Part shown: piece after piece, positions 15,233 through 45,990 of the stretch
Numbering within the stretch: the stretch's first letter is position 1
How the letters are laid out: every line of letters starts with the position of its first letter
Origin: Pecten maximus
Taxonomy: Eukaryota
Assembly (NCBI RefSeq): GCF_902652985.1
Contig: NC_047020.1
Span: 14,012,001-14,076,000 of the forward strand
Reading direction: 5' to 3'
DNA: 64,000 nucleotides
Program-made: the position numbers and the translations under genes
Notes under the pieces: generated by a model
What the model saw: the letters and a program-made list of their open reading frames with translations, nothing else
What the model was told of the DNA's origin: nothing
Database searches by the model: none

Positions 15233-15838
15233 CTATTAGATAAAAAAAATGAAGTAAAAACATGAATCAATTAATAAATAAAACACCCTTATTCACAACA
15301 TTTTGCGGAAGGAGAATTGATTTTTCCAAAACAAACGTTTGGCTTTTTCAATTGGGCGTACAGTAATTCTGATGATTGACTTTTATCTGCCATTATTAAT
15401 TAAACCATTCAAACTTGAATCTGTTATCATCCCATGTTCCTTTTATTTCGTTTTTATCATAAAATAGCGGTTTAAAAGAAACCCTTAAGCATCCAAATAA
15501 TAAGTCACTTGAAGTATTTCCAAAACTCCTTCAAATGGTTCGAATGCCAAAATTATCACCAAAATTATTTGATTCCGAGAACAAAATATAAAAACAGGTC
15601 TTGATATTTTCCAATTTTGCACTGTGCTGTACTTTATGTGTCGCAGTGATAATAACTATGAAAAAAAGTTTTACGACTTTGCTATGAAATGTTTAAATAC
15701 ATAGCAATGATTATTTGGTTAAATTTTGAAAGTTAAAATTTAAAAGAAATTGAAAGTTAATTTTAAAATAAACACGTGCAAATCGGAATAATTGTAGAAA
15801 GTCCTTTCAGAAATGTTAATTGATATTCACGAACTAAC

Positions 15839-16417
15839 CTGGTCTCTTAACAATCCTCTTTGACCTCCGATTGTTTTCCGCTTTTTGAGAAAACTTCTGA
15901 CGTAATATGGACTTGTTCCATAAATCAGCGGTACACCTTTTTTGCCATGTAGATCTACAACGGTCCCTGGTTTCATTTTGTTTCTGATCCTGTGAATGTT
16001 TTCTTGCCTGATTGGTTTCATTGAGACGATACGATCAATGTGATATGTGAGGAATGCATCTTGTTGTTCGGAATCCATTTGGACAGCATTTGAACCTGGA
16101 CCGTGGGAGTGTGCTTCCTCGGGAATAGCCAAAGCGGCGTCGCCGGATAAACTTGGTACAGGATCGGAAGAGTTTGCAGCTACAAGAACATCACAAGGAC
16201 GACCGGCTACAAAATCAAGGGGAGGTGCAGCTTTTTCAGGAACAGCTACAACACAATCACCCGGAAGACTGGCTTCGGAGCCAGGAGGGTGTACAGCTAC
16301 TGTAAGAACAGCTAAGTCGACATTACCAGGAGGACCGGCTACAGAATCGGGATAGCTTGCACGCACTATTGGGACAAGTACCTCTTCATCCTCTCTGACT
16401 GACGTTGTTGGGGACAG
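15839..16417 (-). CDS. Pseudokinase gene, pre-kinase segment (Pro/Ala/Val-rich, ends GGQRGLLRDQ)
   Basis: Open frame (ORF 15827-16366 extends upstream) with donor CAG|gttagt at 15839. The 5' boundary is uncertain (frameshift or 50-nt intron). Confidence 0.65.
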
Positions 16418-16467
16418 CTGGTTTTCATTTGTCAGAAGGGCATCAGCCGCCCGTCCAGAGTACTTAC

Positions 16468-18030
16468 CATGTATGTGTTCAAAGTGGGTGTGATTGGACG
16501 AATTCCAGCATCATAATATGATATCGCTACCTCCTTCAGACTGTTTGAAATTTTGCTCTTTTCGGTAGACACAGAATGTCTACGTAAGTTTGTTTGCTTT
16601 GAAAAGGGTAACAAAGCATTCCATAACATTCCACTCATAATTCTTTGTAGTTCAAACACAATACAAACGATCACACATGTCATTTGTAAGCTGAGTCCCG
16701 ATTCGATGGATGATGTGATCTGGTCTATCACAGTGCTATTTTTCAGGTTTTTGTGACTTTGCTCATAATCTTCGGTGGTGTTTTGTATGATTCCTGCTAT
16801 AGATATCATCTTATCGGTCTGTTGTGATCGCATCACTGCCAGCCATCGAAAACATTCATCTCGAAATCTCAAAATATTTTCCATTTCGCCATGTTGAAAT
16901 TTCGCCGAGGCGTAATTTCCGCTAAATGCTTTTGGTGACATGCTTTTCGTACTGGTTATAGTTGTTTCCAACCTGTCTCCAAGTAAAAAATTCCTTTTTG
17001 CATCAGTCTGAGGAAAATTTTTGAGACGTTCCACCGGATCCACGAGAACAGTTTCATCCATGGAAATACCTGGTGATTGTCCGTCAGTGCGTGCACACAT
17101 AGAGTCAGCATCAAAGTCTCTACCAAGGACGTCAGCATCATCTTCCAAACGATCTTCAGGTATATCGGTTTTGATAAATGGATTTTTGATTGGAATGATG
17201 TCATTCCTGCTGATTGGTAACAAATCAGCAGCTTCTTCCGAAGTAACTTTCCCCTTTCCAACAATTGCTCTCGGGTCGACAGTATGTGACATCTCCTTCT
17301 CTTCAGGCGAGCGCAATGTTCCAGCTGCTCTCTCGAGAGACATGCTCCTCTTACTGCTAGCATTTGTTTTCAACCTGCCGTCCAGTAATATATTTCTTTC
17401 CTTGTCTGTCTGAGGAACATTTTTGAGACGTTCTAATGGGTCCATGAGAATAGTTTCATCCATAGAAATACCTGATGATGGCCCGTCAGTTTGTGAATCC
17501 CACATGCATTCAGCCTCGGCAATATCAAAGTCTCTATCATTTTCTTTATCCAGGAAGTAAGCGCCATCTTCCGAACCGTCTTCAGATACATCAGTTTTGG
17601 TAAATGGATGTTTAACTGGAGTGATCTCATTCGTCTTCATTGACAAGACAGCATCATCTTCCGATGTAACTTTCCCTGTCCCAACATCTGTCCCCAAACC
17701 CTCGGTATGGGATATATCCTCATCTCCAGGCCAGTGATTGCTTTTAACAGATTCATCTTGGTTATCTCCAAGGTATTTTGAGTTTTTTGTAGCCTCTGTT
17801 TTCCCAATGATGTAGCATCCGTCGTAAATATCATTTTCCGGTGATATGAAGTTCAACGAACCATTGAAGTCAGATCCATTTTCAGGTGGTTCCCAGATGT
17901 CCGTTCGATAACGTACTAGTCCTTCATACACGTCTTGCTCACTGTATTTGACACTGTTGGTAAATTCCCACTTATCACCCCCGCTGCCTTTCTTTTGCGT
18001 CACCTCTTTTCTAGCCGGTTCACTCATCAT
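16468..18030 (-). CDS. Pseudokinase gene, large N-terminal exon (acidic low-complexity, internal duplication, hydrophobic segment)
   Basis: 532-aa ORF; acceptor ttacag| at 18070, in frame with ATG 18030; perfect donor ATG|gtaagt at 16468. Confidence 0.75.
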
Positions 18031-19174
18031 CGCTAACTTGATATACCCATCTTTTGGTTCACTATATCCCTGTAATACAATACCAACAGTACATTATTTT
18101 ATCTATTGTCCCTTATAAATAGTAAAACTCCTCATGTTTATATATATCTATCTAATTTATTTCATTTCTGTTTGCTAGTATGCTCATCATTTACTCAGAT
18201 TCAAATGAATTCGACTTTGATACCCGTATCTATGCTTGTTGATTGAAATTATATAACATGATTGTCCCAAACGTACAAAACAATTATCCTTCTTTAACAC
18301 ATCTAATTCAATGTAGATTTCCAATGCATGAGTAATACAATTATTTTATTAGCTATGATTCGATTGACCGTTTCTTAGTCAAGCGTACCTCTGGAAGAAA
18401 AGGGGGGAAAGTTGAGAGAAAGCAAAGCAGAATTTGACAAAAATAATTGTCACACTACTTCAGCTACATTAGATGCAGACAAGGAATGTCAAAAACCTCT
18501 GAAGAAAACGTGATGCTTAGGTGTATATTGACAAGGCGTCCATGGGCCACCGTCATTGTAATGGTGTAGACAAACTATTTTGTGGTACTATATATAATTT
18601 CACATAATATATTTAGATTATTTGAGATATATATATTATATATATACATGTATATATATATTAAGCATAATACATGTAATATGTAAATGTCTCTAAATGA
18701 ATATTGATGTTTTCTATTTTGTCAAGCAGTACTTCGCATCATAATCAACAAATGGAATGACCCCGATATTTGAACCCGGAAGTTATTCTACAGCGTACTT
18801 CGGTTGTTTATTTCCGCTATAAAGGGAAGTTTTTACGTAATAAAGGGGAAGTTTTACACATCTTTCCCCGTTCCTTCAAGTAGGCATCGTGATGTTTCAT
18901 GAAACATTTTCTTTAGATTGGTAAGTACATATTGTTTTAATGTTTTTGTACAATTGTACAACTATTCTGGAATTTTAACCATGGCGTTTCGGCAACTTCA
19001 GCTAGTCACTATCTTCTAGTGACCAGTGCACCGTATGTACATAGACTATCAGCAGTTTTTATCAAGTATTAACAATTTAAAAAATTACAATACTATATCA
19101 AATTTTTACGTATTATTTTATTTGTAATTTTATAGTCAGGGGCCAGTCTAGGTACATGTACAGGGCGCGACGAA

Positions 19175-19500
19175 TTACCCAAATCTACCCAAATCCACCT
19201 AAATCTACCCAAATCCACCTAAATCTACCCAAATCCACCCAAATCTACCCAAATCCACCTAAATCTACCCAAATCCACCCAAATCTACCCGAACCCACCC
19301 AAATCCACCCAAATCCACCTAAATCTACCCAAATCCACCCAAATATACCCAAATCTACCCAAATCCACCCAAATCTACCCAAATCCACCCAAATCTACCC
19401 AAATCCACCCAAATCCACCCAAATATACCCAAATCCACCCAAATATACCCAAATCCACCCAAATATACCCAAATCTACCTTAATCTACTATGTAAATCTA
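19175..19500. repeat. 10-bp tandem repeat AAATCYACCC, ~30 copies
   Basis: Directly visible; inverted copies at 20427-20463. Confidence 0.95.
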
Positions 19501-20499
19501 ACAAAATCATACTTAGAGCTTATAATTTGGGACAGTGAACTTGTAAAATCAATATTTTAGTGCACCATTGTCGCGTAAAGCAATTTTCAGTTTGACCATT
19601 ACCCTCCTCGTGGATCCGCCTTCCAGACCCATGTGTTAACATGGACAGACAAAATGATTAAAGCGAGCGGGGGTGTAAATATGCGTATGGACAAGTTTTA
19701 CCTTACAGACAGCTAGTATCGTTGACATATATCTTGTAAAAGTAAAAATCATACAGTTTAGAGCAGTTGTAAGTATTGTATGAAAGACATTAAGACAATA
19801 TGATATATATATGAATATATATAAGTAGACATTTTCAGTTATAAGGTAGTTTTTACAAGATATGTATAAAGTGACGTTTACATTAAAAAATACACGTTTT
19901 AAATTCAATATTTATCTATTGTTTTAAATTCGATATTTATCTATTCTCAATTGTTCTTTTATTTTTTTTATCAGAAACGAATATTATTTAATATAATAAA
20001 CTTTACAAAATCAAAAATATGCAATTGTACGTTCTAGAATTACGGAATAAAAAAAAATATCTTTAAAAACTGATGAGAAACGTGGGCGGAACACCTGACA
20101 CCTATCAGAAATATATATAAAAAAAAACTAATTCAATATTTTAAATGTCTATTTTTTGTTTATGCCTATTTCAATGTAATCAGTCAGTTGGCAATGAAAT
20201 ATGTTTAAAGTCAATCCATTTGAAAAGAAAATTAAACAAAAATACGAATATTACGACCCGTGCCAACATGTTAGCAGTCTTATAAGGGAGGTAACCCCTA
20301 CTTAATTTTGAATTTTAAACCAATCGACAAAGACCGTACGTAATAGGCCTAATCATTATAAAATGTTAAAAACATCTTTTTGATACGTTATTGATGTAAT
20401 GTATATCATTTTGTGTGGAATATATTGGTAGATTTGGGTGGATTTGGGTAGATTTGGGTAGATGTGTGCACACTGATATATTCGATGAATGAAATTATA

Positions 20500-22275
20500 C
20501 TCTACAATCTTATACCTTTGGGTGTATTGTATTCTGCTATGGTTTACACTGTAATCGTATGTACACTGTGGTGTTTGATGAACGAGTTTGACACTATAAT
20601 GTTATGAACACTTAGATGTTTTATGGACGAGATCGAACACTGAAATGTTCTGTACAATGGGATGTTTTATGGACTAGATCGAACACTGAAATGTTCTGTA
20701 CAATTGGGTGTTTGATGGACGAGATTTTTACACTGTAGTGTTCTGTACAAAGGGTTGTTTAATGGTCGAGATTGTACACTTTAATGTATTATACAATGAA
20801 ATGTTTGATTGACGAGATTGTACATTGTAATTTTATGTATATTGAGATATTTGACGGTTGATACTGTAACCTGTAATATTCTGTACAATGTTATGTACAC
20901 TGTGGTGTTTGATGGACTGGATTGTACTCTCTAATGTTATGAACACTTGCTTTAATTGAGTGCTTGATGGACGAGATTGTATTCTGTAATGTTATGTTTA
21001 CTGGAGTGTTTCAGGGACGAGATTGTATTCTGTAATGTAATGTTTACATGAGTGTTTTAGGGACGAGATTGTATACTGTAATGTTATGTTTACTGGAGTG
21101 TTTCAGGGACGAGATTGTTTTCTGTAATTTTATGTTTACTGGAGTGTTTTAGGGACGAGATTGTATTCTGTAATGTTATGTTTACTGGAGTGTTTCAGGG
21201 ACGAGATTGTATTCTGTAATATTATGTTTACTGGAGTGTTTTCGGGACGAGATTGCATACTGTAATGTTATCTTTACTGAAGGGTTTTAGGGACGAGATT
21301 GTATTCTGTAATGTAATGTTTACTGGAGTGTTTCAGGAACGAGATTGTATTCTGTAATATTATGTTTACTGGAGTGTTTCAGGAACGAGATTGTATTCTG
21401 TAATGTAATGTTTACTGGAGTGTTTCAGGAACGAGATTGTATTCTGTAATGTTATGTTTACTGGAGTGTTTTAGGGACGAGATTGTATTCTGTAATGTTA
21501 TGTTTACTGGAGTGTTTTAGGGACGAGATTGTATTTTGTAATGCTATGTTTACTGGAGTGTTTCAGGGACGAGATTGTATTCTGTAATGTTATGATTACT
21601 GGAGTGTTTCAGGGACGAGATTGTATTCTGTAATGAAATGTTTACTGGAGTGTTTTAGGGACGAGATTGTATACTGTAATGTTATATTTACTGGGGGGGG
21701 GGGGGGATGTTTATTGGAGTGTTTTAGGGACGAGATTGTATTCTGTAATGTTATGTTTACTGGAGTGTTTCAGGGACGAGATTGTATTCTGTAATGTTAT
21801 GTTTACTGGGGGGTTTTAGGGACGAGATTGTATTCTGTAATGTAATGTTTACTGGAGTGTTTCAGGGACGAGATTGTATTCTGTAATGTAATGTTTACTG
21901 GAGTGTTTTAGGGACGAGATTGTATACTGTAATGTTATATTTACTGGGGAGGTTTAGGGACGAGATTGTATTCTGTAATATTATGTTTACTGGAGTGTTT
22001 TAGGGACGAGATTGTATTCTGTAATGTTATGTTTACTGGAGTGTTTCAGGGACGAGATTGTATTCTGTAATGTTATGTTTACTGGGGGGTTTCAGGGACG
22101 AGATTGTATTCTGTAATGTTATATTTACTGGAGTGTTTCAGGGACGAGATTGTATTCTGTAATGTTATATTTACTGGAGTGTTTCAGGGACGAGATTGTA
22201 TTCTGTAATGTTATGTTTACTGGAGTGTTTCAGGGACGATATTGTATTCTGTTATGTCATGTTCACTGGGGTGAT
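20500..22275. repeat. 46-bp minisatellite (GGGACGAGATTGTATTCTGTAATGTTATGTTTACTGGAGTGTTTYA); homogeneous 20970-22270, degenerate to the left
   Basis: ggacgag recurs at 21061, 21107, ... Confidence 0.95.
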
Positions 22276-23429
22276 TGATTAATCTCCCTTCTTTGAACCG
22301 TTTATAGCTTTTTTCAACATGACTTCAGACAGTATTGTTCATTGATATCTAATCGATTGTGTTGGCTGTTATGAAATGAATTTGACAATACAGTCTTTGT
22401 CAGCAAAAGTGGTCGATTTGCATAAGCGTTTACACAAAAGATGTATTGGTCATGTGACAAGATATCAAACATATTGACATTACATTCATTTTGATCAAAA
22501 CACCACTTTCCTTTCTCACACTTTTAGAGTTTAACATCAGTGTTGATAACGAATGTTATGAAGTATATTCGTATACACAAAACGTTCAATGACAAGTATA
22601 CAATTTAATTCTGGCTATGTTAATTTATACAATATTTTAAACAATAACTACAATATACATCGGTATCTTTGATAACAATCATATGCTAGAACATCTTACC
22701 TGTTTTAATAGTAAGAAATGATTGATAATTCTCAATTCTTTCTTCGAACGTCAATCATTAATGGTTTACTTTCGTTTTAGCTGGTTTATCCAATTTGTAA
22801 AATTCCGGGTATCATTTTTTTTTATTTCATGCAATTTTAATGACAAAGCTGTTATCAGTCAATTAGATAGAATAACGAGCAAACCTATTTTATTTTCCCC
22901 AGTGAAATGGTCAAAGTACATGTAGGAAAAATAATCAGAAAATATTTCAGACATATCGGGAATGGGGGGAAAACCACGAACTTATAACAACACAAAGGTA
23001 AGGGGAAGTAACTTAAGAATGAAACATCTCACAACCTCCTCCACACTTACAGGGAACAACCAACCAATTGAAAAAATAGATTTTTGAAACATCCCCTGTG
23101 TATAGAAAGTTGAGCCAAGGATAAAATTCTGGCAGCCACTGATTGGCCAGTATGTTATGAAGTAAGAAAATAGATATGTAGCCTGATAGGTAACTATCCA
23201 TAAGAAATGTTGATATAAATTTCGTTAGCCCGATTTAATGTTTTTCCCAAAAGTTCAGGTAATAATAATCAACAGGTAAACATTTAAGATTTTTGAGATT
23301 TTTTACTGCGAAATTCACCCATTTTCAAAATGGCTACCTGGAGAAAATTTGAGCTGAAGGACCGAACTTTTTTTTTTGATAATGTGTTTTATGAGACCCT
23401 AAACTTTCGTTATAAACCATAATTGAATT

Positions 23430-25614: not shown

Positions 25615-25919
25615 CCATCATCCAAATACATCAAAATCTGTAAACCCTCACCTCTCCATATTTTAATGAGCGCTCTAGTTACTTTGGTAAAAATATATGG
25701 AGCGGTAGATAGACCAAATGGTAACACTAAAAATTTGAAATATACCTTCTTAGAACCAAATGTCCAAGAAAAACCAAGAAATTTGGTATGAGGTGGAAAT
25801 ATATATATGTGATGATACGCCGAATGTATGTCAAATTTAATTAACCAACCCTGTTTTTCTATATACACCAAAGCCGTGCGTAAATCGTCATATTTTACAG
25901 ATTGTTTCCATAAATGTTT
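25615..25919 (-). repeat. Internal duplicate of RT segment 28533-28840
   Basis: Near-identical sequence, differing by 7-nt, 3-nt and 1-nt indels and a few substitutions. Confidence 0.95.
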
Positions 25920-26305
25920 TTCCTTTTTCCTAACAGGTTTCGACAATAATCGCTTAGCTCCCTCAAAAACATTTTTTACAAGTAAAGAATCAGTGGGAGA
26001 TGTTTTATCCACGATATTGTGTGCCCATCTAATGCCGTATAAAGCGTCAGTTAAACTTCCAACACTACCGTTCTTTTTAACCAAATATGATAAATATATA
26101 CACAAGATGAAAGTTTTAGTCGGAAAAATATCCTCTTCCTCAAAACTATTTTGACACGCCCACTTTTTCCATCGTAAAAAACCATGGCAGTATTTCCTAA
26201 CTGTACTGTCTGCTTTACACCCCTGTAGTAATTGTGGAACCGCCAACGCAAAGTCCTTTAGATGATCCGGAACCATATCGTATTCATCTTTCAAAGCATG
26301 TGCCA
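25920..26305 (-). pseudogene. Tyrosine recombinase N-terminal (core-binding) part; catalytic half deleted
   Basis: KADSTVRKY..GF.RWKKW...SPTDSLLVKNVFEGAKRLLSKP aligns with the copy 2 YR, then jumps into RT sequence. Confidence 0.85.
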
Positions 26306-26559
26306 CTAAACGTAAAAAATAAAAAACAAAAATATTCCAAAATAAGTATTCAACATGAAAATATATTATATTGTACACTTGTACACAAATAGCGAAACTT
26401 AAATTGTATTGTGATAGGAATAATATCCAATAATAAAGAAAAAACGTGTTAACAATACCTTCAAAATTTATATACATGTAAATACCGTAAGATCAGTTAA
26501 AATGAATGAACTTATCACCGAAAAAACGGTACAGAATCGATCAAACCAATCATGCGAAA

Positions 26560-27087
26560 AACTAAAAACCGAAAGTCGGTATATATACAGTACATGTATG
26601 TCTGTCAAAACACCGAAAACCAGTATAAGGATATACAATTACCATAACTCTCTGTCACGACACCGAAAAACGGTATAATAACACCGAAAACCGGTAACAC
26701 CGCAAAACGGTATGTATAATACAGTTATCATAACTGTCTGTCATAACACCGAAAACCGGTATATATACAGTTATCATAACTGTCTGCCATAACACCGAAA
26801 ACCGGTATATATACAGTTATCATAACTGTCTGCCATAACACCGAAAACCGGTAGATATACAGTTATCATAACTGTCTGTCATAACACCGAAAACCGGTAT
26901 ATATACAGTTATCATAACTGTCTGTCATAACACCGAAAACCGGTATATATACAGTTATCATAACTGTCTGTCATAACACCGAAAACCGGTATATATATAC
27001 AGTTATCATAACTGTCTGCCATAACACCGAAAAACCGGTATATATACAGTTATCATAACTGTCTATCATAACACCGAACACCGGTAC
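26560..27087. repeat. 46-bp tandem repeat inside PAT copy 1, between pol and YR (ATAACACCGAAAACCGGTATATATACAGTTATCATAACTGTCTGYC)
   Basis: ~8 near-identical units at 26714-27085 plus degenerate units to the left. Confidence 0.95.
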
Positions 27088-27239
27088 TGCGACAATATAA
27101 ACTGCTAATCAAATAAATCTTATAATACGATTCTCACCAAAAATGGTATCATGTCAAAGAAAATACTATGAATCAAAACAAAAAAGCTGTACACAAAATG
27201 TCCATATAAACCTATTTACATATGTGTACGTGCCTGATT

Positions 27240-29518
27240 ATCGAAAATCAACACGTAATGCAAGCATAGGAAATGCCAAATCTACATGTCCGAATATACC
27301 CTTTCCTGATCGGGAAGGGGTATAAAAATATTTCTGTCTGTAAGAATCTGTATTCCCTAATCCCCACTATAAAGCTCCGTCCGTCCGGATACACACAGGG
27401 CCAAAACCTACAAGACTTCCAAAAAGGAATGACAAGCGTGCCATATGCTTTACACATTTGCATATACCGGATAACTCTCGAAATGAGATACACTGGAGGA
27501 ACAAACTATCCATTAAAACCGGACCAACTAGCAGAAAAGGCGTCAATACCAGTGGACCCTGGATTCCAATACCTAGAATAAAATGTAGACACCTTACTGT
27601 TGTACCAGGAGGCAAACCAGTCCACCTCAAATGTACCCCAAAGGTCATCCAAAAACTGGAAAATACTTTTACTCACACCCCAATCGTCAACATCAACAAT
27701 TTTACTGATAAAATCAGCACACACATTTTCCTCTCTGGGGATCCATTCCATTTCCAATGAAATATGATTTTCTAGCATGAGCTTAAAAATATCAAGTGCT
27801 TCATTTTGCAGAGATGATTTCATGCTCCCCTTCTGAACAATTGAAACCACGCCCTGGTTATCTGAAAACCATTTAACCCGAGTTCCTCTCAATTCATTAA
27901 CAAGAGAACATAACACTCGATATACAGCTGTCAATTCCCTAAACGTCGAACTCTGACCTGCCTTGTTCTCAGTCCAAACTCCGTGTGCCACGCCCACTGG
28001 AGACTCCACACAATATCCACCGTACCCTATGCCACTAGCATCCGAATAAACTATTCTATTGCACTGTGGAGAATACTGAATGTCTCTAGAGTTGATACAA
28101 TTGATATGATTAACCCAGAATTACATCTGAGCTACAGCATTTTCATCCACAAAAATTCTGTCATTCCACGACTGGGCTTGTAAGATACACATACTGATAC
28201 ATTTTGTCATCAGCTGAGTAATATTACCCAGTACTATACTCATGGACATAATTTGACCAACAAAACTAGCTAAAGTTTTAACATGGACTGACCTGCCACT
28301 CTGAATAACATTCAACATATCAAAAACGCACACACGTGCTTTCTCTACTCGTCTCTGCGGTATAGATAAAATTCCCACTAAAGTATCGATATCTACACCG
28401 AGAAAAGTCATACACTGGACAGGATCCCACATGGACTTGTCTGCTTTGGGCACAAAACCCGACTCAATAATATCACTTTTCACTTTAGAACTCTGTTCTA
28501 ATAGCTTCAACTTGACAGTATTATGACACAATCCATCATCCAAATACATCAAAATCTGTAAACCCTCACCTCTCCATTTTTAATGAGCGCTCTGGTTACT
28601 TTAGTAAAAATATATGGAGCGGTAGATAGACCAAATGGTAACACTAAAAATTTGAAATATACCTTCTTAGAACCAAATGTCCAAGAAAAACCAAGAAATT
28701 TGGTATGAGGTGGAAATATATCTATGTGATGATACGCCGAATGTATGTCTTTAATTAACCAACCCTGTTTTTCTACAATGTATATACACCAAAGCCGTGC
28801 GTAAATCGTCATATTTTACAGATTGTTTCCATAAATGTTTGTTGACTTCTCTCAAATCTAAAATTAAAATTAAACGCTTTTTACCGCTGCTCTGAACCGA
28901 TACAGTCAATGGATTTGTGATATATGGCAATTCCTCACATCTCCCTATCAATTTACGTTTTTCTAAATCAAAAATAGCCTTCTCCACAAACCCTGCATGT
29001 TTCAACGCCGAAACGTTATTTTTAAATTCTCCCTTGTTTGGTTCCGAATAAAAAGGAATTTTATACCCAGTATCAATCACATCTAAAACAAATTCTGAAC
29101 AACCAATGTTCTTCCAGTATTCAATGTTATTTTTTAATCTACTTTTAACTAAAATGTCAGCCTGTCCTTGCTCATATTCAAAAAAGTCATTCGTTAGATC
29201 TCCTGAATCACGGACTCCTGTACAATCACTACTTGACAAATTATTTGTATACTTATCTTTAATGACTTGACCCTCTGTGGTCTCTATGTCCCTATGTCCC
29301 AGTCCTGGACTGTCCGGCCGACTTGTTGATGATTGGACAGTCTTTCCGAAAGTGTCGGAAGTCCCCACAGGCGTAACATGCTCCCTGATTTCCTCGTTGG
29401 CCACGAAAAAGATTACTCCCGTCAGAATGACGCACAGTAGAAATCTGACTTGAAGACCCCGCCGCAAAACTGGGACCTTGAGGCCCATACCTGGACCTCT
29501 GCCTGTTGAGAAAAACAT
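27240..29518 (-). pseudogene. pol: pol (RT, RNase H, MT-like) of copy 1, with frameshifts and stops
   Basis: ORF pieces 28751-29518, 28549-28812, 28121-28552, 27506-28009, 27248-27493; motifs KRLILDL, LPFGLS, YLDDG, SSTFREL, DWFAS. Confidence 0.9.
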
Positions 29519-30005
29519 CCTTCTTCTTTTTCTGTTTGTCTTTCAACCTTTTCACTGCTTTGTTCTCAGCACGAGAAATTTTCGTGTCGTCATCTGAATC
29601 ACTAGCAAGAGGGTTAGCTATATATTCATTGACTGTCCCCCAACCTGCCTCAGAACTTTCTGCTATTCTGATAAGTTTGTTCCTTTTATTAATCTTTTCC
29701 GACACTCGCCTCAGAATTTCAGAACAATATTCAAACTTGCTATTGTCAACATCCCATAACGCTTGTGTAACTTCCTCCAGAAGGTCCGAATTAAAGGAAT
29801 ACTGTTGCTTATTCCCATCACTTTTCCACGTGATACTTATGTCCTCCTTCAATTTTTTAATGTCTTTAGAAACGTCTCTCCCGTTCTGAATTTCAGCCAA
29901 CCTATTGTCCAAGTATTCCTTAATTTCACCTTTCTGGCTTTGTAGTTGTTGAAATATATCATTTAAGGTAACGCTACTGGCAGAATTCGAACTGCTGCCC
30001 TCCAT
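29292..30005 (-). CDS. gag: gag of copy 1 (CCHC knuckle CYACGDFRHFRKDC)
   Basis: ATG of MEGSS at 30005; homologous to the copy 2 gag (RNK.I.IA.SS..GW.TV..Y..NP.ASDSDD). Confidence 0.85.
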   Translation of the reverse strand: MEGSSSNSASSVTLNDIFQQLQSQKGEIKEYLDNRLAEIQNGRDVSKDIKKLKEDISITWKSDGNKQQYSFNSDLLEEVTQALWDVDNSKFEYCSEILRRVSEKINKRNKLIRIAESSEAGWGTVNEYIANPLASDSDDDTKISRAENKAVKRLKDKQKKKKDVFLNRQRSRYGPQGPSFAAGSSSQISTVRHSDGSNLFRGQRGNQGACYACGDFRHFRKDCPIINKSAGQSRTGT

Positions 30006-36664: not shown

Positions 36665-38208
36665 TACCAGTTCGTATTGCCCCTGTACAATTCACCAGTT
36701 CGTATTGCCCCTGTACAATTCACCAGTTCGTATTGCCCCTGTACAATTCACCAGTTCGTATTGCCCCTGTACAATTCACAAGTTCGTATTGCCCCTGTAC
36801 AATTCACCAGTTCGTATTTCCCTGTACAATTCACCAGTTCGTATTTCCCTGTACAATTCACCAGTTCGTATTGCCCCTGTACAATTCACCTATTGGTATA
36901 ACCCCTGTACAATTCACCAGTTCGTATCACCCCTGTACAATTTACCTATTGGTATCACCCCTGTACAATTTACCTATTGGTATCACCCCTGTACAATTCA
37001 CCAGTTCGTATCACCCCTGTACAATTTACCTATTGGTATAACCCCTGTACAATTCACCAGTTCGTATTTCCCCTGTACAATTCACCAGTTCGTATTTCCC
37101 CTGTACAATTTACCAGTTCGTATTTCCCCTGTACAATTTACCAGTTCGTATTTCCCCTGTACAATTCACCAGTTCGTATTTCCCCTGTACAATTTACCAG
37201 TTCGTATTGCCCCTGTACAATTCACCAGTTCGTATTTCCCCTGTACAATTCACCAGTTCGTATTTCCCCTGTACAATTCACCAGTTCGTATTGCCCCTGT
37301 ACAATTCACCAGTTCGTATCACCCCTGTACAATTTACCTATTGGTATCACCCCTGTACAATTTACCAGTTCGTATTTCCCCTGTACAATTTACCAGTTCG
37401 TATTTCCCCTGTACAATTTACCAGTTCGTATTTCCCCTGTACAATTCACCAGTTCGTATTTCCCCTGTACAATTCACCAGTTCGTATTGCCCCTGTACAA
37501 TTCACCAGTTCGTATTTCCCCTGTACAATTCACCAGTTCGTATTTCCCCTGTACAATTCACCAGTTCGTATTGCCCCTGTACAATTCACCAGTTCGTATT
37601 TCCCCTGTACAATTTACCTATTGGTATAACCCCTGTACAATTCACCAGTTCGTATTTCCTCTGTACAATTCACCAGTTCGTATTTCCCCTGTACAATTTA
37701 CCTATTGGTATAACCCCTGTACAATTCACCAGTTCGTATTTCCCCTGTACAATTCACCTGTTCGTATTTTCCCTGTACAATTTACCTATTGGTATAACCC
37801 CTGTACAATTTACCAGTTCGTATTTCCCCTGTACAATTTACCAGTTCGTATTTCCCCTGTACAATTCACCAGTTCGTATTTCCCCTGTAAAATTTACCTA
37901 TTGGTATAACCCCTGTACAATTCACCAGTTCGTATTTCCTCTGTACAATTCACCAGTTCGTATTTCCCCTGTACAATTTACCTATTGGTATAACCCCTGT
38001 ACAATTCACCAGTTCGTATTTCCCCTGTACAATTCACCTGTTCGTATTTCCCCTGTACAATTTACCTATTGGTATAACCCCTGTACAATTTACCAGTTCG
38101 TATTTCCCCTGTACAATTCACCAGTTCGTATTTCCCCTGTACAATTCACCAGTTCGTATTTCCCCTGTACAATTCACCTGTTCGTATCGCCCCTGTACAA
38201 TTCACCTA
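36665..38208. repeat. 28-bp minisatellite, ~55 copies, two interspersed variants (CACCAGTTCGTATTTC / TACCTATTGGTATAAC + CCCTGTACAATT)
   Basis: ccag recurs at 36667, 36695, 36723. Confidence 0.95.
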
Positions 38209-38755: not shown

Positions 38756-38842
38756 TTCTCCTACAATCTCTGTTCGTGCCTAATGCCAGAAAACACACAA
38801 ACACTTGAATAAATTGCAAACGGGGCGACCGACCCGCGTACT
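38756..38842 (-). repeat. Split direct repeat B2
   Basis: Copy of 39326-39412. Confidence 0.95.
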
Positions 38843-39152: not shown

Positions 39153-39326
39153 AATTTTAACGAAAGCTGACCGTGTATACGCCTAAAAGGTCGTCGCCTG
39201 AATGACACAACCACGAACACGCACGTGCTTCGCAGGTAGCATATAGCGCCACCTAGCGGTCCGCTCTACTATAGGAGAAATTAATTTCGTTCTTATTCCG
39301 CCTAGTCAAACGAAAGAAATTACATT
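39153..39326 (-). repeat. Split direct repeat A2
   Basis: Copy of 43355-43528. Confidence 0.95.
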
Positions 39327-40409
39327 TCTCCTACAATCTCTGTTCGTGCCTAATGCCAGAAAACACACAAACACTTGAATAAATTGCAAACGGGGCGACC
39401 AACCCGCGTACTGTCGTATACCTAAATTCCTGGAAACTAACAATCTCTCCTCAAGGGAATCCTTTACATAACAGTCTTTCGCATTCTCCGATTTCCATCT
39501 GCCGTGCCTCTTAAATATTCTGTCTGCCACTGTTAAATTAGCCGCGCTTGTTGCTCCGCCGGACCGTAAACTGTGTAAACCATATTTACTGATATCAGAT
39601 ACGAAAGGAGAGAACACTTGAATAAATAACTCGCGCATCCGCGTATATGACAGAGGTTTGTTCTCATCGCGCAAAATGAAACCATTGCTGGTCTTAGTAA
39701 TAGATCGAAAAACATAGCGATCTGAACCAAGTATTAACTCCGCGATATCAATATACCTCTCCAGATTGGATACCGGACATAACTTAGTATACGTCCTAGC
39801 TTTTACAACATGGTCACCGTCCCTATAAATATCAGTCTTGCTCTGACGAATTGAAATAGTCATATGACTTTCAGAAAATTCAATGTCGCACATACGTATG
39901 CTAAGTAATTCTGATACGCGTAAAAAACCTGCATAGGCTATCAAGCAACCACAAATTGTACGCTGCGAAAATAAATCTTTGTCACTGTAATTCGCAGAAT
40001 ACATAGATTCTAACAGTTCTGGAGTAATAGGGTCCTTCCTATTCCTCGGTGTAGACAAACGCCTCTTTGCTCCCTCGAGAATGTTCCTCACTAATAATGA
40101 ATCAGTGGGAGAATCCCTCCCAATGATAGAATGCGCCCATTTTAAACTATAATAGGCTTGTATAACCGGGCTTGACGTCGCATTATGCTGGACTAAACAC
40201 GCGAGATAGAGAGCAACATGGATGGCCCTAGCCGGAAAACACTCCACCTCAGATAACCCTTTTTTCAAGGCCCAGTCCTTCCAACGTACGAATCCCTGGT
40301 AATACCCTTTCGTTGTGCTACTGGCTTTACTTTCGGCCAAAAGTTGAGGGAGGAGACTGACGTATCCGACTAAGGCCCCAGGCAGCTCTGCTATTTCCCG
40401 CTTGAAAGC
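39306..40409 (-). CDS. Tyrosine recombinase (YR) of copy 2
   Basis: Catalytic residues present: GFLRVSEL (R), SKTD (K), HSLRSGGA (HxxR), HGRW, KDCY (Y). No N-terminal ATG; the ORF-track start at 40436 is TTG. Confidence 0.92.
   Translation of the reverse strand, partial: AFKREIAELPGALVGYVSLLPQLLAESKASSTTKGYYQGFVRWKDWALKKGLSEVECFPARAIHVALYLACLVQHNATSSPVIQAYYSLKWAHSIIGRDSPTDSLLVRNILEGAKRRLSTPRNRKDPITPELLESMYSANYSDKDLFSQRTICGCLIAYAGFLRVSELLSIRMCDIEFSESHMTISIRQSKTDIYRDGDHVVKARTYTKLCPVSNLERYIDIAELILGSDRYVFRSITKTSNGFILRDENKPLSYTRMRELFIQVFSPFVSDISKYGLHSLRSGGATSAANLTVADRIFKRHGRWKSENAKDCYVKDSLEERLLVSRNLGIRQYAGWSPRLQFIQVFVCFLALGTNRDCRRNVISFV
39326..39412 (-). repeat. Split direct repeat B1
   Basis: Copy of 38756-38842. 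Confidence 0.95.
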
Positions 40410-40563
40410 CTGCGAAAATATGTTTAAACAAAACAAAAATACTAAATTAAAATGTAAGCAGTAAGTTGCTTATATACATATAGTGTCACATCCAAAACGC
40501 CCCTATCAAAAAACCACCACCAGGATTTCACGTACTAGTATGGAGTACGACCATCGTAAACAG

Positions 40564-42982
40564 TTATAGGTTAATACATTTAGCATTGTTAAAATTTAAC
40601 CTCAGAGCAATCATCTTGAAAGGAAGATCAATCCTTCCGAACAGACTTATTCCCTTAGGATCCTTTGTTAGTGGGTAAGTATATAAATTCCACCACCTCT
40701 GGTATAAAGCCACCACCACTTGGACATAAAAATGGCCAAAAACTGGCTGACCTCCAAAGAGGTACCACCATGGTCCCATATGCGCCACACTGCTGCATAT
40801 AACTAAGGACACGATGCACTATGCATACTGGTGGAACATACCACCCGTTTACACCTTGCCAATCGGCTGTAAACGCATCCATACCGGATGACCCCACATT
40901 CCAATACCTTGAAAAATACACAGGTAACTTGTTATTGTTATCGCTGGCGAACCAGTCTATCTCGTGGGGTCCCCAAAGGGAATCAAAAAACTGAAAAATA
41001 TCACTGGAAACACCCCAATCATCACAATCGACAATACGACTTATGAAATCTGCCTTTTCATTCTCGTTTCTCGGAACCCACTCGATATCAATTGATATAC
41101 AATTTCTTAAACAGGTGTAAAATATAGATAATGCAACCTTCTGCAAGTCGGCCCTCATGCTGCCCTTGTTTACAATAGATACAACATTCTTATTGTCCGT
41201 GTACCATCTGACCCGTCTACCCTGAAAGACGTACACAAATGACGTCATGACCCTGTCCACAGTGGACAGTTCTCGCCAAGTAGAACTCCTACCGGCTTCA
41301 ACCTCGGACTACATACCGTGTGAAGTACCCATAGGGGTATTCATGACGTACCCGCCGTATCCTGTATGACCCGCGTCGCTAAAAACAATAGATTGACAGG
41401 AATTATCATTAATGAACTTTTTCCCATTAATTTCGCTAACAGATTTGTCCCAAAACTTGAGTTGTTCAACGCTTTGACCCGACAACACTATGTCGGCGTT
41501 CCACGAAGGGGACAAAGCCACGTCTATACTCAACCATTTTGTCATTATGTAGACAACGTTACCCAAGATATATGACATAGAAATGATCTGTCCAACAACA
41601 GAAGACACCTTTTTAACCCTCACAACTCCTCTCTCCTCTATATCTGTTATTACCCCTGAAATACTTGAACGTAACTTTGTCAATCTGACATCGGGAACTT
41701 TTAAAATACCCAAAACAGTGTCAATATAATTCCCGAGGAAAACTAATTGTCTGACAGGCAACCAAGTAGACTTCTCTGGTTTCGGCACAAACCCGCTCAA
41801 AATCAAATCATTCTTGACCTGACTGGATATAGAAGCACACACTTTCTCATCTCTATGAGTACCTAACCCATCATCTAAATACATAAGTATTTCTTTGCCC
41901 TCGGATCTCCACTTCCTAATCAAAGGCCTGGTTAGCTTTGTGAAAATGTAACAAGCCGAGCTAAGACCAAACGGAAGTACTTTGAATTTAAAAAATTGCA
42001 CCCTGCCCCCCAAACGCCAGGAAAACCCTAAACATTTTGTATGGGGCTCAAAAATATCAACATGATGGTATGCGGAATGAATATCAAACTTAAAGCGAAA
42101 ACTATCTTTCTTGATGAATTGCATGGCTACCCTGATATCCTCAAACTTCACACTGGTCTTCCATAAATGATGGTTTACATGCCTTAAATCTAAAATGAGA
42201 CGTTTCTTTCCATTACTCTGAACAGAAACCGTTAAGGGGTTGACAACGTAGGGCATTTCCTTACAAACGACTACAAGGTCCCTAGCTATCAAATCTCCAA
42301 TGGCTTCCTCAACGAAACTCGCATGCTCCATAGCTGACCGATTATTACGTAAGAATACAGAAGTAGGGGTTGAATAAAAAGGTATCTTATACCCGATATT
42401 TATAGTGTCAAGAATAAAATCGCTACAACCAATGCTCTTCCAGAACTCTAAACGATCACACAAACGCCCCTTTACTCTTATATTGACTTGACCCAACTCA
42501 TATTCGTAATAATCGTCAGTAAGGAAAATGTCATTATACTCATCTTTCAACAGTTCATTCTTTCCCGATGGCTGGTACACCTTTTCCTTGATTAGGACAC
42601 TCGTTCCTCCAATGCTGGAAAGATCCACAGCCGTAGCATGCTCCCGATGACCGGCCTCGTCGTTGTCCGTATGCGTGCGCGTGTGTGCCGCCGCCTGTAC
42701 CGCCGAACTGGAACATAGGGACTCCACGTGCACTGAACCAAGGCTCTTGGCCTTGGGGTCCACGAAAGGGCTGCTGGAAATTAGGAAAATTACCACGCAT
42801 GCCCACAGCGCCGCTGGACTTGCCAAAGCCCGTAGACTTCTTTCCTTGTATTTTCCCTTTCTTCTTTTTAATAGCTCGGTTTTCTGCTCTGTTGATTTTT
42901 CCCTCGTCGTCGGAATCACTGGCAATGGGATTGTTTTCATATTGCCTAACTGTTTCCCAACCTCCATCACTAGAGTCAGCAA
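40564..42982 (-). pseudogene. pol: pol of copy 2: RT (YLDD), RNase H and DNA adenine-methyltransferase-like domain; one in-frame TAG (41309-41311) and a frameshift near 40665
   Basis: ORFs 41309-42982 and 40655-41260 are in the same frame; motifs KRLILDL, FDIHSAYHH, LPFGLS, YLDDG, FSDA, SSTWREL, DWFAS, WYVPP. Confidence 0.92.
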
Positions 42983-43349
42983 TTTTGATATGTTTGTTCC
43001 TTTTTGAAATTTTATCTTGCAGACTAGTCAACAACTCGCGTGCGTAGTCTTCTTTGTTGTTGTCAAGCGCCCAACTTAACTGACCAATGTCTTCGGAAAG
43101 TTCCGAATTAAATCCGTGCTGGACCTTGTTACCCTCAAATTTCCACTTGAATGAATTTTCTACCTTTAACTTTTTCACCTGTGTTGCCACGTTTACAGCA
43201 GAACCTTTCACTTCGGCTTTGAGCTCACCTATCTCATGACGCAAACTGTTATTTATAATGTTAATATTGTTCCCTTGCTCTTTTACAGCATTCCAAATAT
43301 CTGAAAGACTAACGTGGTCTTGTCTCTGTAGCTCCTCAGTATCCGCCAT
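42555..43349 (-). CDS. gag: gag of copy 2 (CCHC knuckle CYGCGSFQHWRNEC), overlapping pol
   Basis: Intact 264-aa ATG ORF immediately after A1. Confidence 0.92.
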   Translation of the reverse strand: MADTEELQRQDHVSLSDIWNAVKEQGNNINIINNSLRHEIGELKAEVKGSAVNVATQVKKLKVENSFKWKFEGNKVQHGFNSELSEDIGQLSWALDNNKEDYARELLTSLQDKISKRNKHIKIADSSDGGWETVRQYENNPIASDSDDEGKINRAENRAIKKKKGKIQGKKSTGFGKSSGAVGMRGNFPNFQQPFRGPQGQEPWFSARGVPMFQFGGTGGGTHAHAYGQRRGRSSGACYGCGSFQHWRNECPNQGKGVPAIGKE

Positions 43350-43354
43350 GAATG

Positions 43355-43528
43355 AATTTTAACGAAAGCTGACCGTGTATACGCCTAAAAGGTCGTCGCC
43401 AGAATGACACAACCGCGAACACGCACGTGCTTCGCAGGTAGCATATAGCGCCACCTAGCGGCCCGCTCTACTATAGGAGAAATTAATTTCGTTCTTATTC
43501 CGCCTAGTCAAACGAAAGAAATTACATT
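43355..43528 (-). repeat. Split direct repeat A1 (5' terminus)
   Basis: Copy of 39153-39326. Confidence 0.95.
43395..43464 (-). promoter_or_regulatory. Putative promoter in A1: CTCF-like motif GGGCCGCTAGGTGGCGCTA (43446-43464), E-box (43423-43430), Inr-like TCATTC block (43395-43410)
   Basis: Close match to the canonical CTCF core; conserved in A2 and in copy 1. Confidence 0.6.
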
Positions 43529-44329
43529 ACTGTATGTTATCGTAGGGTTGACCTATATAGTAACTTCACTTCGGTTCCGATTGTGTAATTAATACACAAC
43601 ACTGCAAATTGCCGGTAATACGCCAAGTTACCTTGGATTCAAATATTCGACGTAGAAGGTAGAAGTATTGAAGTGATGGGAAAGATTGACGAGTAAATAT
43701 GGACTTCGAAAGATTACCGATAGTGCCAGTTTGTCCTCGCTATTTTTAGATGGAGTTTTGTTTGTACAACATACTGAATCGCCCCAGATATTAAATCCGG
43801 AAAAATATAAGTGGCCTAATTTATTTACTCATTATTTTATTCAAACGCTAAAAGCGTGTAAATTTACGCCACTTTGTGTGAAGCTTTTATTAGAAATATC
43901 TTTTAATTATTGTGTTTGCTTTATTAAATGGAATACCACAGTTTAAATGTATCGGGACATTTGACCCGGTCGCTGGTTTGTGTGTCAGTTTTGCCTTGTG
44001 ACCCGTATGTTCATCGAGACATTTCACCCATCTTGTTTACCGTCGTAGACTTTCTTTTGGTTTAAACTGTATTTAATTTGGTTATAGCAATGGTACATAC
44101 AAATAATACAAATATAAGGATACAGAAACAAGTACTTGGTACTTATATTAATCCGTCTCCTGATGTAGATATAGACTATGGACTGATATTGACAAAATTA
44201 ATAATACATTTGTCATATATATTTATATATATATAATATGTGCAGGGAAGAGAAAAAGAACGGGTGCAGGGGTCGGGTTGGGGATTACTTGGTGGCATCG
44301 GGGTTGGCATCAAAAATGCAAGAATGGAA

Positions 44330-45990
44330 CAAACACTGGTTATTTATCATCAGAGTTCATAACAGATATGTACTTACACTATATGATATAAGTATTGGGA
44401 CTGTACATGTATTTCTGTAAATATGTACTATTAATATATAGTAAAACAATACAAACACAAAATTTTAACGAAATCTGCGCCATACAAAGTGTATATAAGT
44501 ATCGCGACGATAAATAGGATTTCTAGCATAAAGACAATAGTAATTTCAGAAACGTTTAGATTGAATGATGAAACTTTGAACACAATCAAAAATAACTTCG
44601 TTGAACTGAACAGGGAATTCTGGACTACCATAGAGTAAAAGGTTAACATTATAGTTAGGAGGAAGGCGATTAAAACATTGAAGTCTAAGCTGCCGGTAAT
44701 TGGCACAATGGAGGAGGAAGTGTTCAGTAGTTTCAGTAGACAGATTACACGAACACATAGGGCCATCAACTAAGTTTCGAGCGAACAGATGAGTATTCAA
44801 AGAGCTGCAATTCATTCTTAGACGTGCATGATGAATCTAGCCGTGTCTGCTTCTGCAGTGGTAATAGTGCTGAGGGACAGAGTGAGCAGAAAGAGTTTCG
44901 GAGTTAAGGAATGTTTTTAAGTTAGTTATGGACGGATTGGATTTGATGTTTTCAGGAAGTGTGTTCCATAAATCAACAGAAGAGGATATAAAAGAATCTT
45001 TATAGAGTTTTGTTCGACAGTTTATTTGACAGAAATTATTAGCTCTTCTTGTGTTATGAGTATGAATATCAGATTGACGAGAAGGTAGGAAGTTATTCAG
45101 ATAAGGAGGGCACTGACCATGAACAATCTTGTGGAATTGAATAATTTTATGCTTTCTCCTGCGAGCACTAAGGGGGTCCCAACCGGTTTCTACATAAAGT
45201 CTAGCGTGGCTTGTGAGTTTAGTTGCACCAGTCACGATTCTAACTGCTTCTAGCTGTATATTTTCAAGAATCTGGTTTTGGCCTAGAGTTAGGTTGTCCC
45301 ATACAATATCACCATATTCTAATAGGGGTCTAATGAAAGTATAATACATAGTTTGAAGAGACTTACTGTCAATACTAAATTTGAGGTTTCTAAGTAAACT
45401 AAGTTTTTTAGAGGCTTTACTAGTTATATATTGGATATGGTCAGTCCAACTCCCGTTAGCAGATATTGATACACCGAGGTGTTTATGGCACGTTACTTCA
45501 GTTAGGGAAATGTTATTCATGATCAGGGGTGGATGGATAGGTTTGTCAAGTTTCTTACTTACAGTCATTGTAACAGTTTTGTTAGGATTAAAATTTACGA
45601 GCCATGTTTGAGACCACTCATGAATTTTGGTTAGATCGTTATTTAACTAATTTGTGGCCAGACCCGGTGACTCCACTTCGACATATAGAGACGTATCGTC
45701 AGCAAATAGTTTTATATTACAATGGATGTCATGAACAATATCATTTATGAAAATTAAAAATAGTAATGGTCCTAAAATTGATCCCTGGGGAACTCATGCT
45801 GTGATATATGCTAAATAAGATTGCTTACCATTTATAACAACACGTTGACAACGATTTTTTAAGTAATCCGTGAACCAAGTAAAAAGATTTCCTGTGATAC
45901 CCAACGATCTTATTTTAGAAAGAAGGCCTCGAAGTCAAACCCGGTCAAAGGCCTTGCTTATGTCACAAAATACCATTCTGATTTCTAAAC
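44330..45990 (-). mobile_element. 5'-truncated CR1-clade LINE; RT domain to 3' UTR, with stops
   Basis: VFCDISKAFDRV, VPQGSILGPLLFLIFINDI, LFADDTSL, LEYGDIVWD, QLEAVRIVTG, CSC...ET.EHFLLHC, ...IQSKRF*. Confidence 0.92.

Follow-up and report, generated by a model that had tools for sequence, protein, structure and literature searches.

How a tyrosine-recombinase (YR) retrotransposon produces its recombinase has so far been a matter of guesswork, with frameshifting proposed for layouts in which the reading frames overlap. The question is raised by an element on the minus strand of a 64,000-nucleotide stretch of the Pecten maximus genome (NC_047020.1, positions 14,012,001 to 14,076,000; hereafter the window), which runs from A1 at 43531 to B2 at 38756 in the order gag, RT/RH/MT and YR, followed by B1, A2 and B2. 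Its pol ends at about 40564 and its YR frame is closed upstream at 40470; as the two do not overlap, a ribosomal shift from pol into YR is impossible. In this respect the element differs from Ngaro, for whose YR Poulter and Butler 2015, cited in PMC13003380, proposed a frameshift in the pol/YR overlap. The available portions of the Pat1-like descriptions (PMC4157794, PMC3266345) give no route of YR expression.

The focal element is a Pat1-like YR retrotransposon (Table 1). Its pol matches the Pfam families RVT_1 (E 1e-12) and RVT_3 (E 5e-3) and its YR matches Phage_integrase (E 3e-6). The methyltransferase behind RNase H matches Dam at E 6e-4 and 19.9 bits, under the cut-off of 28.1; PF05869 is present in the related pol proteins P0137, P0140 and P0141. 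The gag-RT/RH-YR order, the methyltransferase domain with its weak Dam match and the A1-B1-A2-B2 repeats are those of PAT elements, and the Gag zinc finger, the co-oriented YR and the inner repeats behind YR are those of the echinoderm form of the Pat1-like layout, as defined in PMC4157794. The Pat1-like elements of the PAT group, DIRS order, share with the focal element the zinc-knuckle gag, RT/RH/MT and the co-oriented YR, and have the same repeats with the inner pair behind YR (PMC4157794, PMC3266345). A DIRS1-like identity was rejected, the element having only direct repeats and neither inverted terminal repeats nor an internal complementary region. The split direct repeats would fit a Ngaro-like element, but the weak Dam match does not. 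The copy is decayed: its pol contains in-frame stops at 41311 and 40657 and, relative to RNA contigs, short indels near its end.

Table 1. Features of the focal element and of copy 1 in the window (a slash marks a splice boundary)
Feature	Position	Strand	Remarks
A1, 5' split direct repeat	43355..43531	-	97.7% identity with A2 across 177 bp
gag ORF, 264 aa, ends at its own stop codon	42555..43349	-	CCHC knuckle ~42597-42638
GT donor of the sequence-only reading, gag codon 12; rejected	43312..43313	-	weak, unconserved, no joint
TTT CGT in gag frame, predicted +1 ribosomal frameshift into pol	42762..42767	-	+1 frame open from 43027
pol frame	40564..42766	-	RT ~42196-41732, RNase H, methyltransferase-like ~41026-40757
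Putative non-canonical donor AAG/ATGAGTAT	42536..42546	-	exon end 42544, phase 1 in pol frame
Family-specific second donor, phase 0 in pol frame	42317..42325	-	GC in focal copy; GT in L041, L043 and X1/X3/X5 contigs; rival route to AG at 40410
GT donor joined to 40409 in RefSeq model P0001	40750..40751	-	matches X5 loose end; phase 2 in pol frame
GT donor of 191-nt GT-AG intron, run X2	40599..40600	-	pol-frame phase 2; YR not kept in frame
Pyrimidine tract and AG acceptor (AG 40411-40410)	40410..40438	-	phase 0 in YR frame; used in RNA; conserved
Predicted phase-1 acceptor	40424..40425	-	AA in focal copy, AC in most sister families; exon would start at 40423
Tyrosine recombinase frame	39306..40423	-	integrase domain ~39977-39462; first ATG 40004
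B1 repeat	39326..39412	-	98.9% identity with B2 across 87 bp
A2 repeat	39153..39329	-	pairs with A1
B2 repeat, 3' end	38756..38842	-	pairs with B1
Copy 1, decayed element of another family	25920..30005	-	YR cut off at 25920
Copy 1 signals	TTT CGT 29408-29403; donor AAG/ATAAGTAT, exon end 29257; AC 26313-26312, AG 26307-26306	-	AC and AG both phase 1

A genome protein search yielded 462 candidates, of which 150 were scored and 120 of those places taken for comparison; with 14 earlier loci and the two copies in the window the set comprised 136 loci in 33 families. An earlier sequence-only reading had claimed that YR lacks an ATG for about 140 codons and is apparently expressed by splicing onto a conserved acceptor. 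The acceptor is indeed present, with an exon starting at 40409. In the focal copy the first in-frame ATG lies 136 codons past it, or at codon 156 of the stop-to-stop frame 40469-39306, but the claim does not extend to the sister loci L041-L044, which have an ATG at codon 83 (and L044 a further one at codon 48). The N-terminal part of YR is conserved with copy 1, as stated (42% identity across 126 aa); the YR of copy 1 is itself not ATG-less, having an in-frame ATG at codon 8, and its AG, said to occupy the homologous position, is present but located 8 nt further upstream and in phase 1. An in-frame ATG upstream of YR, which the reading had regarded as evidence against itself, occurs in 8 of the 23 families with an open YR frame, at scattered positions; in 5/23 the first ATG is among codons 1-30 and in 10/23 it comes only after codon 30. 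The start codon is thus unconserved among families whereas the acceptor is conserved. A pyrimidine tract and AG precede the start of YR homology in 51/51 tabulated family representatives (seven acceptors in the acceptor/YAC tabulation having been set by hand), which is more than chance, and the phase-0 CAG is kept in all 20 tabulated members (13 + 7) of the focal element's clade.

RNA contigs from 4 of 24 listed runs were compared with positions 39335-43560, for the focal element's family only. In run X2, recorded as RNA, a joint removes 40600-40410, a 191-nt GT-AG intron, alongside an unspliced contig. A contig of run X5 breaks off at the acceptor; its eight loose letters agree with the end of the exon that precedes the GT at 40751, and the element contains no other match of this kind. 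The RefSeq model of this locus, P0001, labelled Pecten maximus, has the same intron. Together these data establish the AG at 40411-40410 as a working 3' splice site, and with the conservation of the acceptor they support splicing into it; spliced RNA entering at 40409, whose absence would have spoken against the reading, was found as a joint in one of the four runs and as a loose end in another. Both RNA-indicated donors, 40600 and 40751, are in phase 2 of the pol frame, and neither splice keeps YR in frame. Since assembled contigs cannot rank expression levels, the RNA depth of YR relative to pol was not used as evidence; gag or pol parts without RNA cover prove nothing.

The cover of YR exceeds that of pol and gag in X2, X3 and X5 and, although contigs cannot rank levels, could be taken to reflect an internal promoter in the pol end from which YR is made from its own ATG on a short RNA, the conserved non-GT motif described below then being a U1-binding element spliced only accidentally. 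U1 binding guards the full-length RNA of EVD (PMC5580714), the RNA joints begin in the pol end, many database homologues start M-F-x-Q and an ATG is found upstream of or early in YR in 13/23 families. Yet the ATG positions are scattered, ten families including the focal one have none before codon 30, both RNA joints put the upstream ATGs out of frame, and a gag-YR join in frame exists in contig L303 (see below). We therefore regard this explanation as very unlikely.

Which donor, then, is joined to the acceptor? The sequence-only reading had proposed GAC CAC/gttagt, and this site is found at 43314/43313, 12 codons into gag and in phase 0, so that a 12-codon gag leader would be spliced from 43313 to 40409. 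The phase fits and the site is kept in 3/3 full-length copies of the family. It scores, however, less than 4.5 bits on a donor weight matrix, has no comparable phase-0 counterpart in the first 40 gag codons of any of seven sister families, and no joint to it is among those listed for the four runs; a contig of X1 crosses it unspliced. A leader of this kind is extremely improbable. Because the codon-12 donor is weak, unconserved and without a joint, the mRNA likely consists of the whole of gag plus YR with pol removed; of the proposed spliced subgenomic mRNA the splicing into the YR acceptor stands and the short gag leader falls. A conserved canonical in-frame GT donor was not found in gag or early pol of the focal clade. 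Among the contig matches listed from the four runs, whose assemblies tend to lose rare RNA forms, no joints to 43313, 42543 or 42322 occur; the contigs cross all three sites unspliced, 42543 being passed by a contig of X1 (39383-42646) and one of X5.

A conserved site of another kind lies at the gag/pol border. The motif G/[ACT]TRAG[TC]A is present there in 27 of 29 testable families (four of the 33 lacked gag or RT and were left out) and in 91 of 96 copies; the families share ancestry and are not independent counts. The two negative families are single decayed copies, each one base off. In pol the background amounts to 10 sites in 53,878 nt, or 0.032 per family. At +1, the first intron base, 21 families have A, five T and one C; none has G. 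Among metagenome contigs of other hosts, of which 80 loci were kept of 521, 14 of 19 families have the motif, and 3 of the 5 negative ones contain a GT or a near-match at the same place. A weak GT site stands at the gag/pol border of the metagenome loci L274, L287 and L291, where others have the non-GT donor. The motif is in phase 1 of the pol frame in families with gag/pol overlap, where it encodes D-K/E-Y, and in phase 0 in families in which gag and pol are fused, where it encodes K-I-S. Two reading phases and different residues mean that it is kept as nucleotides and that protein constraint cannot explain it.

The motif agrees with the consensus of major-spliceosome donors at every position except +1 (AG/ATRAGTA reaches 8.0 bits on a donor weight matrix if +1 is ignored), and it is without the minor-spliceosome motif ATATCC. 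Judged by its letters, the donor appears to be of the U2-type AT-AC/AT-AG class, a major-spliceosome 5' site with A at +1. U2-type AT-AC introns are rare, numbering 24 among 610,067 introns of five species (PMC1557818, Table 1), and in these and in hybrid AT-AG introns the 5' site likewise follows the consensus except at +1 (PMC1557818, PMC6280755). In reporter assays, AT, TT and CT donors of this form are used, with cuts at +1 but also at -1 and +5 (PMC6280755). The known U2-type AT-AC cases are single host introns (PMC1557818); the Pat1-like site, by contrast, is conserved in dozens of transposon families and begins with A, T or C at +1.

That the site is used follows from genomic copies that have lost the predicted intron. 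All-against-all comparison of the 136 loci revealed ten junctions that remove RT or RNase H. Two of them, in different families, run exactly from the non-GT donor to the AG before YR, whereas the other eight end at unrelated places. The copy L088 lacks 2085 nt relative to L090, and L137 lacks 2026 nt relative to L120; in both, a G is kept on each side, the removed piece is AT...AG, and the split A/B repeats are retained, as expected of retrotransposed spliced RNAs. The evidence consists of DNA, not reads, and both copies come from families with fused gag and pol. A gag-YR join in L096 was set aside as a deletion; it lies in an 8-nt microhomology away from splice signals. Spliced genomic copies were searched for in eight overlap families, the focal one included, and none was found.

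The AT-AG junctions of L088 and L137 are out of frame with YR and prove the donor but not YR expression. Splicing brings a stop to the second codon in 12 of the 14 fused families; as in Copia elements (PMC5580714), the spliced message would encode Gag only. For the fused families a -1 shift at the junction was also considered, but in most of them that frame closes one or two codons ahead of it, and the idea was rejected. In ten fused families (L072, L078, L081, L085, L086, L089, L090, L100, L128, L134) the dinucleotide at donor position +5, in phase 1, is GT in nine and GC in one. A cut at this +5 GT could possibly join Gag in frame to phase-1 YR acceptors, making the site a 4-nt donor toggle.

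A gag-YR join was found in the metagenome contigs L303 and L286, which are 99% alike and were counted once. They contain a gag with TTT CGG and its own stop, and no pol; the +1 frame continues into YR in the predicted phase. When they are aligned with L281, a relative that is unspliced, similarity (78% aa) sets in precisely at the residue that follows the phase-1 AG of L281; this relative stands in here for the contig's own unspliced parent, and the contig may be of DNA or RNA origin. Protein searches for spliced fusions recovered nothing but pol proteins and predicted gene models whose donors vary, which were not counted as support, and a search of viral contigs returned only eight distant phage integrases (21-25%). 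In the bivalve gene models P0001, P0002, P0124, P0131, P0146, P0152 and P0162 assorted upstream exons are joined to the same acceptor, likely because gene predictors require GT donors.

The phases pose a problem in the focal family. The non-GT donor is in phase 1 of the pol frame and the AG at 40411-40410 in phase 0, so that a join of the two is out of frame and a phase-1 acceptor is needed. The sequence-only reading had itself noted that the acceptor of copy 1 is in a different phase; this is correct, and the conflict arises because both the conserved donor and the acceptors of copy 1 are in phase 1. A phase-1 YAC occurs no more than 18 nt ahead of the AG in most overlap families with an AT donor (18 of 23), in 2 of 6 families with a TT donor and in none of the 14 fused families; with an automatic choice of acceptor the numbers are 17/23, 0/6 and 0/14. 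Counted from the AG it stands at 3, 6, 9 or 14 nt, a spacing that in most cases is too short for a branch point; in the focal clade the spacing is always 14 nt, with no indels. In that clade the YAC would likely be the 3' end of a putative U2-type AT-AC intron, although neither the RNA contigs nor the genomic copies showed a junction there. The focal family is one of the 5/23 that lack a phase-1 YAC. Its phase-1 letters at this place are AA, which L048 and L067 also have, and it has an AC in phase 0. The frame behind the AA at 40425-40424 reads Ile-Phe-Ser-Gln, which matches the N-termini of relatives with a plain phase-1 AG. The in-frame junction of the focal family likely lies 14 nt upstream of the AG used in RNA; otherwise another donor register is needed.

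One such register would be a cut one base earlier in the same donor, which yields a GA-AG intron with exon end 42545 in phase 0 and brings pol in frame to the AG at 40411-40410, the YAC 14 nt upstream serving as a branch-point element. Non-canonical donors are cut at -1 as well as at +1 (PMC6280755), and the AG both works in RNA and belongs to a phase-0 CAG found throughout the 20 tabulated clade members. Arguing against this register, which we consider rather unlikely, both spliced genomic copies are cut at +1, sister families with the same donor have phase-1 acceptors only, and the YAC stays in phase 1 whether it is 3, 6, 9 or 14 nt away.

The lack of a phase-1 AC in the focal family also favors a route by way of a canonical phase-0 donor at 42322, or by the RefSeq route, in which 42130 is joined to an exon of 51 nt (40802-40752), with the same AG as acceptor and the AT donor being only regulatory or serving a Gag-only RNA, as in Copia. 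The donor reads CAG/GTAAGT (8.9 bits) in L041 and L043, and contigs of three runs have T at +2; P0001 is an in-frame predicted model, and four fused families contain phase-1 GT donors 64-85 nt behind the non-GT donor. The site is, however, family-specific, being absent in the 11 relatives checked, contigs of X1, X3 and X5 cross it unspliced, and the first intron of P0001 is a gene-model prediction. This route is unlikely.

In the model that we prefer, YR would be made from a spliced RNA without pol, in which the non-GT donor AG/ATGAGTAT behind gag is joined to the acceptor zone before YR. Gag ends at its own stop in the focal element, and a second signal is predicted to lead ribosomes past it. 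Of 14 overlap families, 13 contain TTT CGN in the gag frame within the final 300 nt of gag, but of 11 fused families only one does; the 14th overlap family has it in a separate listing, and in overlap families the +1 frame is open from TTT CGN into pol. UUU_CGN is the +1 frameshift motif of influenza PA-X and plant amalgaviruses, where it is located in the ORF1 frame within an overlap with an open +1 frame encoding the polymerase (PMC5052127); the Pat1-like motif differs in residing in a retrotransposon and in that the shift is a prediction. Whichever RNA they translate, most ribosomes would terminate after Gag. A minority would slip +1 at UUU_CGU and go on in the second frame, reading RT/RH/MT if the RNA is full-length and YR if it is spliced. 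The full RNA would thus yield Gag and Gag-Pol (Gag-RT/RH/MT), and the spliced RNA Gag and Gag-YR. As the donor pairs with U1 everywhere except at +1, splicing would be partial and full-length RNA would be left for packaging. Two low rates, multiplied, would keep the recombinase scarce; control of dosage, which the sequence-only reading also had in mind, may be their purpose. We consider it probable that the recombinase arises in this way, from a pol-less RNA spliced at the non-GT donor and a shift at UUU_CGU.

In retroviruses, env is expressed by weak splicing that removes pol while full-length RNA is retained. The same is proposed for the gene downstream of pol in the focal element, with the difference that the donor follows gag rather than a leader and that the product would be a frameshift-dependent Gag fusion. 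The spliced Gag RNA of the Ty1/Copia element EVD (PMC5580714) offers another parallel, as a splice at the end of gag parts structural from catalytic products. In contrast to EVD, the Pat1-like splice would drop pol whole, the RNA runs on into YR and the donor has no GT; the likeness extends to the fused families, in which the splice brings a stop two codons after gag. The sequence-only reading was right in its acceptor and in its idea and wrong in its donor: its observation is partly confirmed and its interpretation partly supported.

The remainder of the window contains further traces of mobile and repetitive DNA. In copy 1, YR is truncated by a duplicate (25615-25919 versus 28533-28840, 95.5%) of part of the element's own RT region, and a tandem array of 46-bp units occupies 26570-27090, between its pol and YR. 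Among families the pol-YR spacer ranges from about 150 to more than 1,700 nt, and in the families of L055 and L077 it contains tandem arrays of about 90 bp; these arrays and that of copy 1 lie inside the predicted intron. Elsewhere in the genome, at G000:C17 ~6.9-7.4 Mb (L332-L341), more than ten decayed fragments of related YR elements are clustered. An open frame at 44840-45646 on the minus strand, without a Pfam match, is presumably similar to the C-terminal portion of a LINE reverse transcriptase. Minus-strand open frames of 553 and 227 aa lie in a GC-richer stretch at 15827-18093; they gave no Pfam or Atlas match, that at 16435-18093 having no usable Atlas match. Tandem arrays are located at 36665-38208, 54616-56200, 20571-22420 and 19117-19548, with units of 28, 35, 46 and 10 bp, and several long open frames of the window are products of such arrays.

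In the available portions of the DIRS-order literature (PMC7192593, PMC6681497, PMC3266345, PMC9210276, PMC4157794), neither spliced YR expression nor non-GT donors nor UUU_CGN shifting is described, and the same holds for those of PMC9341512, PMC13003380, PMC12477816 and 10.64898/2026.05.21.726589; Poulter and Butler 2015, Poulter and Goodwin 2005, the Repbase reports and supplements lie outside this coverage. The findings raise the prospect of a conserved two-switch program in animal Pat1-like retrotransposons, new to the literature, in which a PA-X-type +1 shift would decide between enzyme and Gag, and a major-spliceosome intron whose first base is selected to be other than G (AT-AC, AT-AG, TT-AG, CT-AG) would decide between reverse transcriptase and recombinase; we regard the case for this general claim as evenly poised. 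For the Pat1-like group the analysis provides exact, testable coordinates for the expression of pol and YR. Dozens of non-GT donors shaped by natural selection, each with its paired 3' end, become available as well, a class otherwise rare, and the analysis explains why gene predictors that require GT invent varied exons onto Pat1-like YR genes. If the two-switch program is real, these elements would hold more functional non-GT U2 donors than any other natural set, with a last intron base that co-evolves with the first, and the site of the fused families may toggle between Gag, when cut at +1, and Gag-YR, when cut at the +5 GT.
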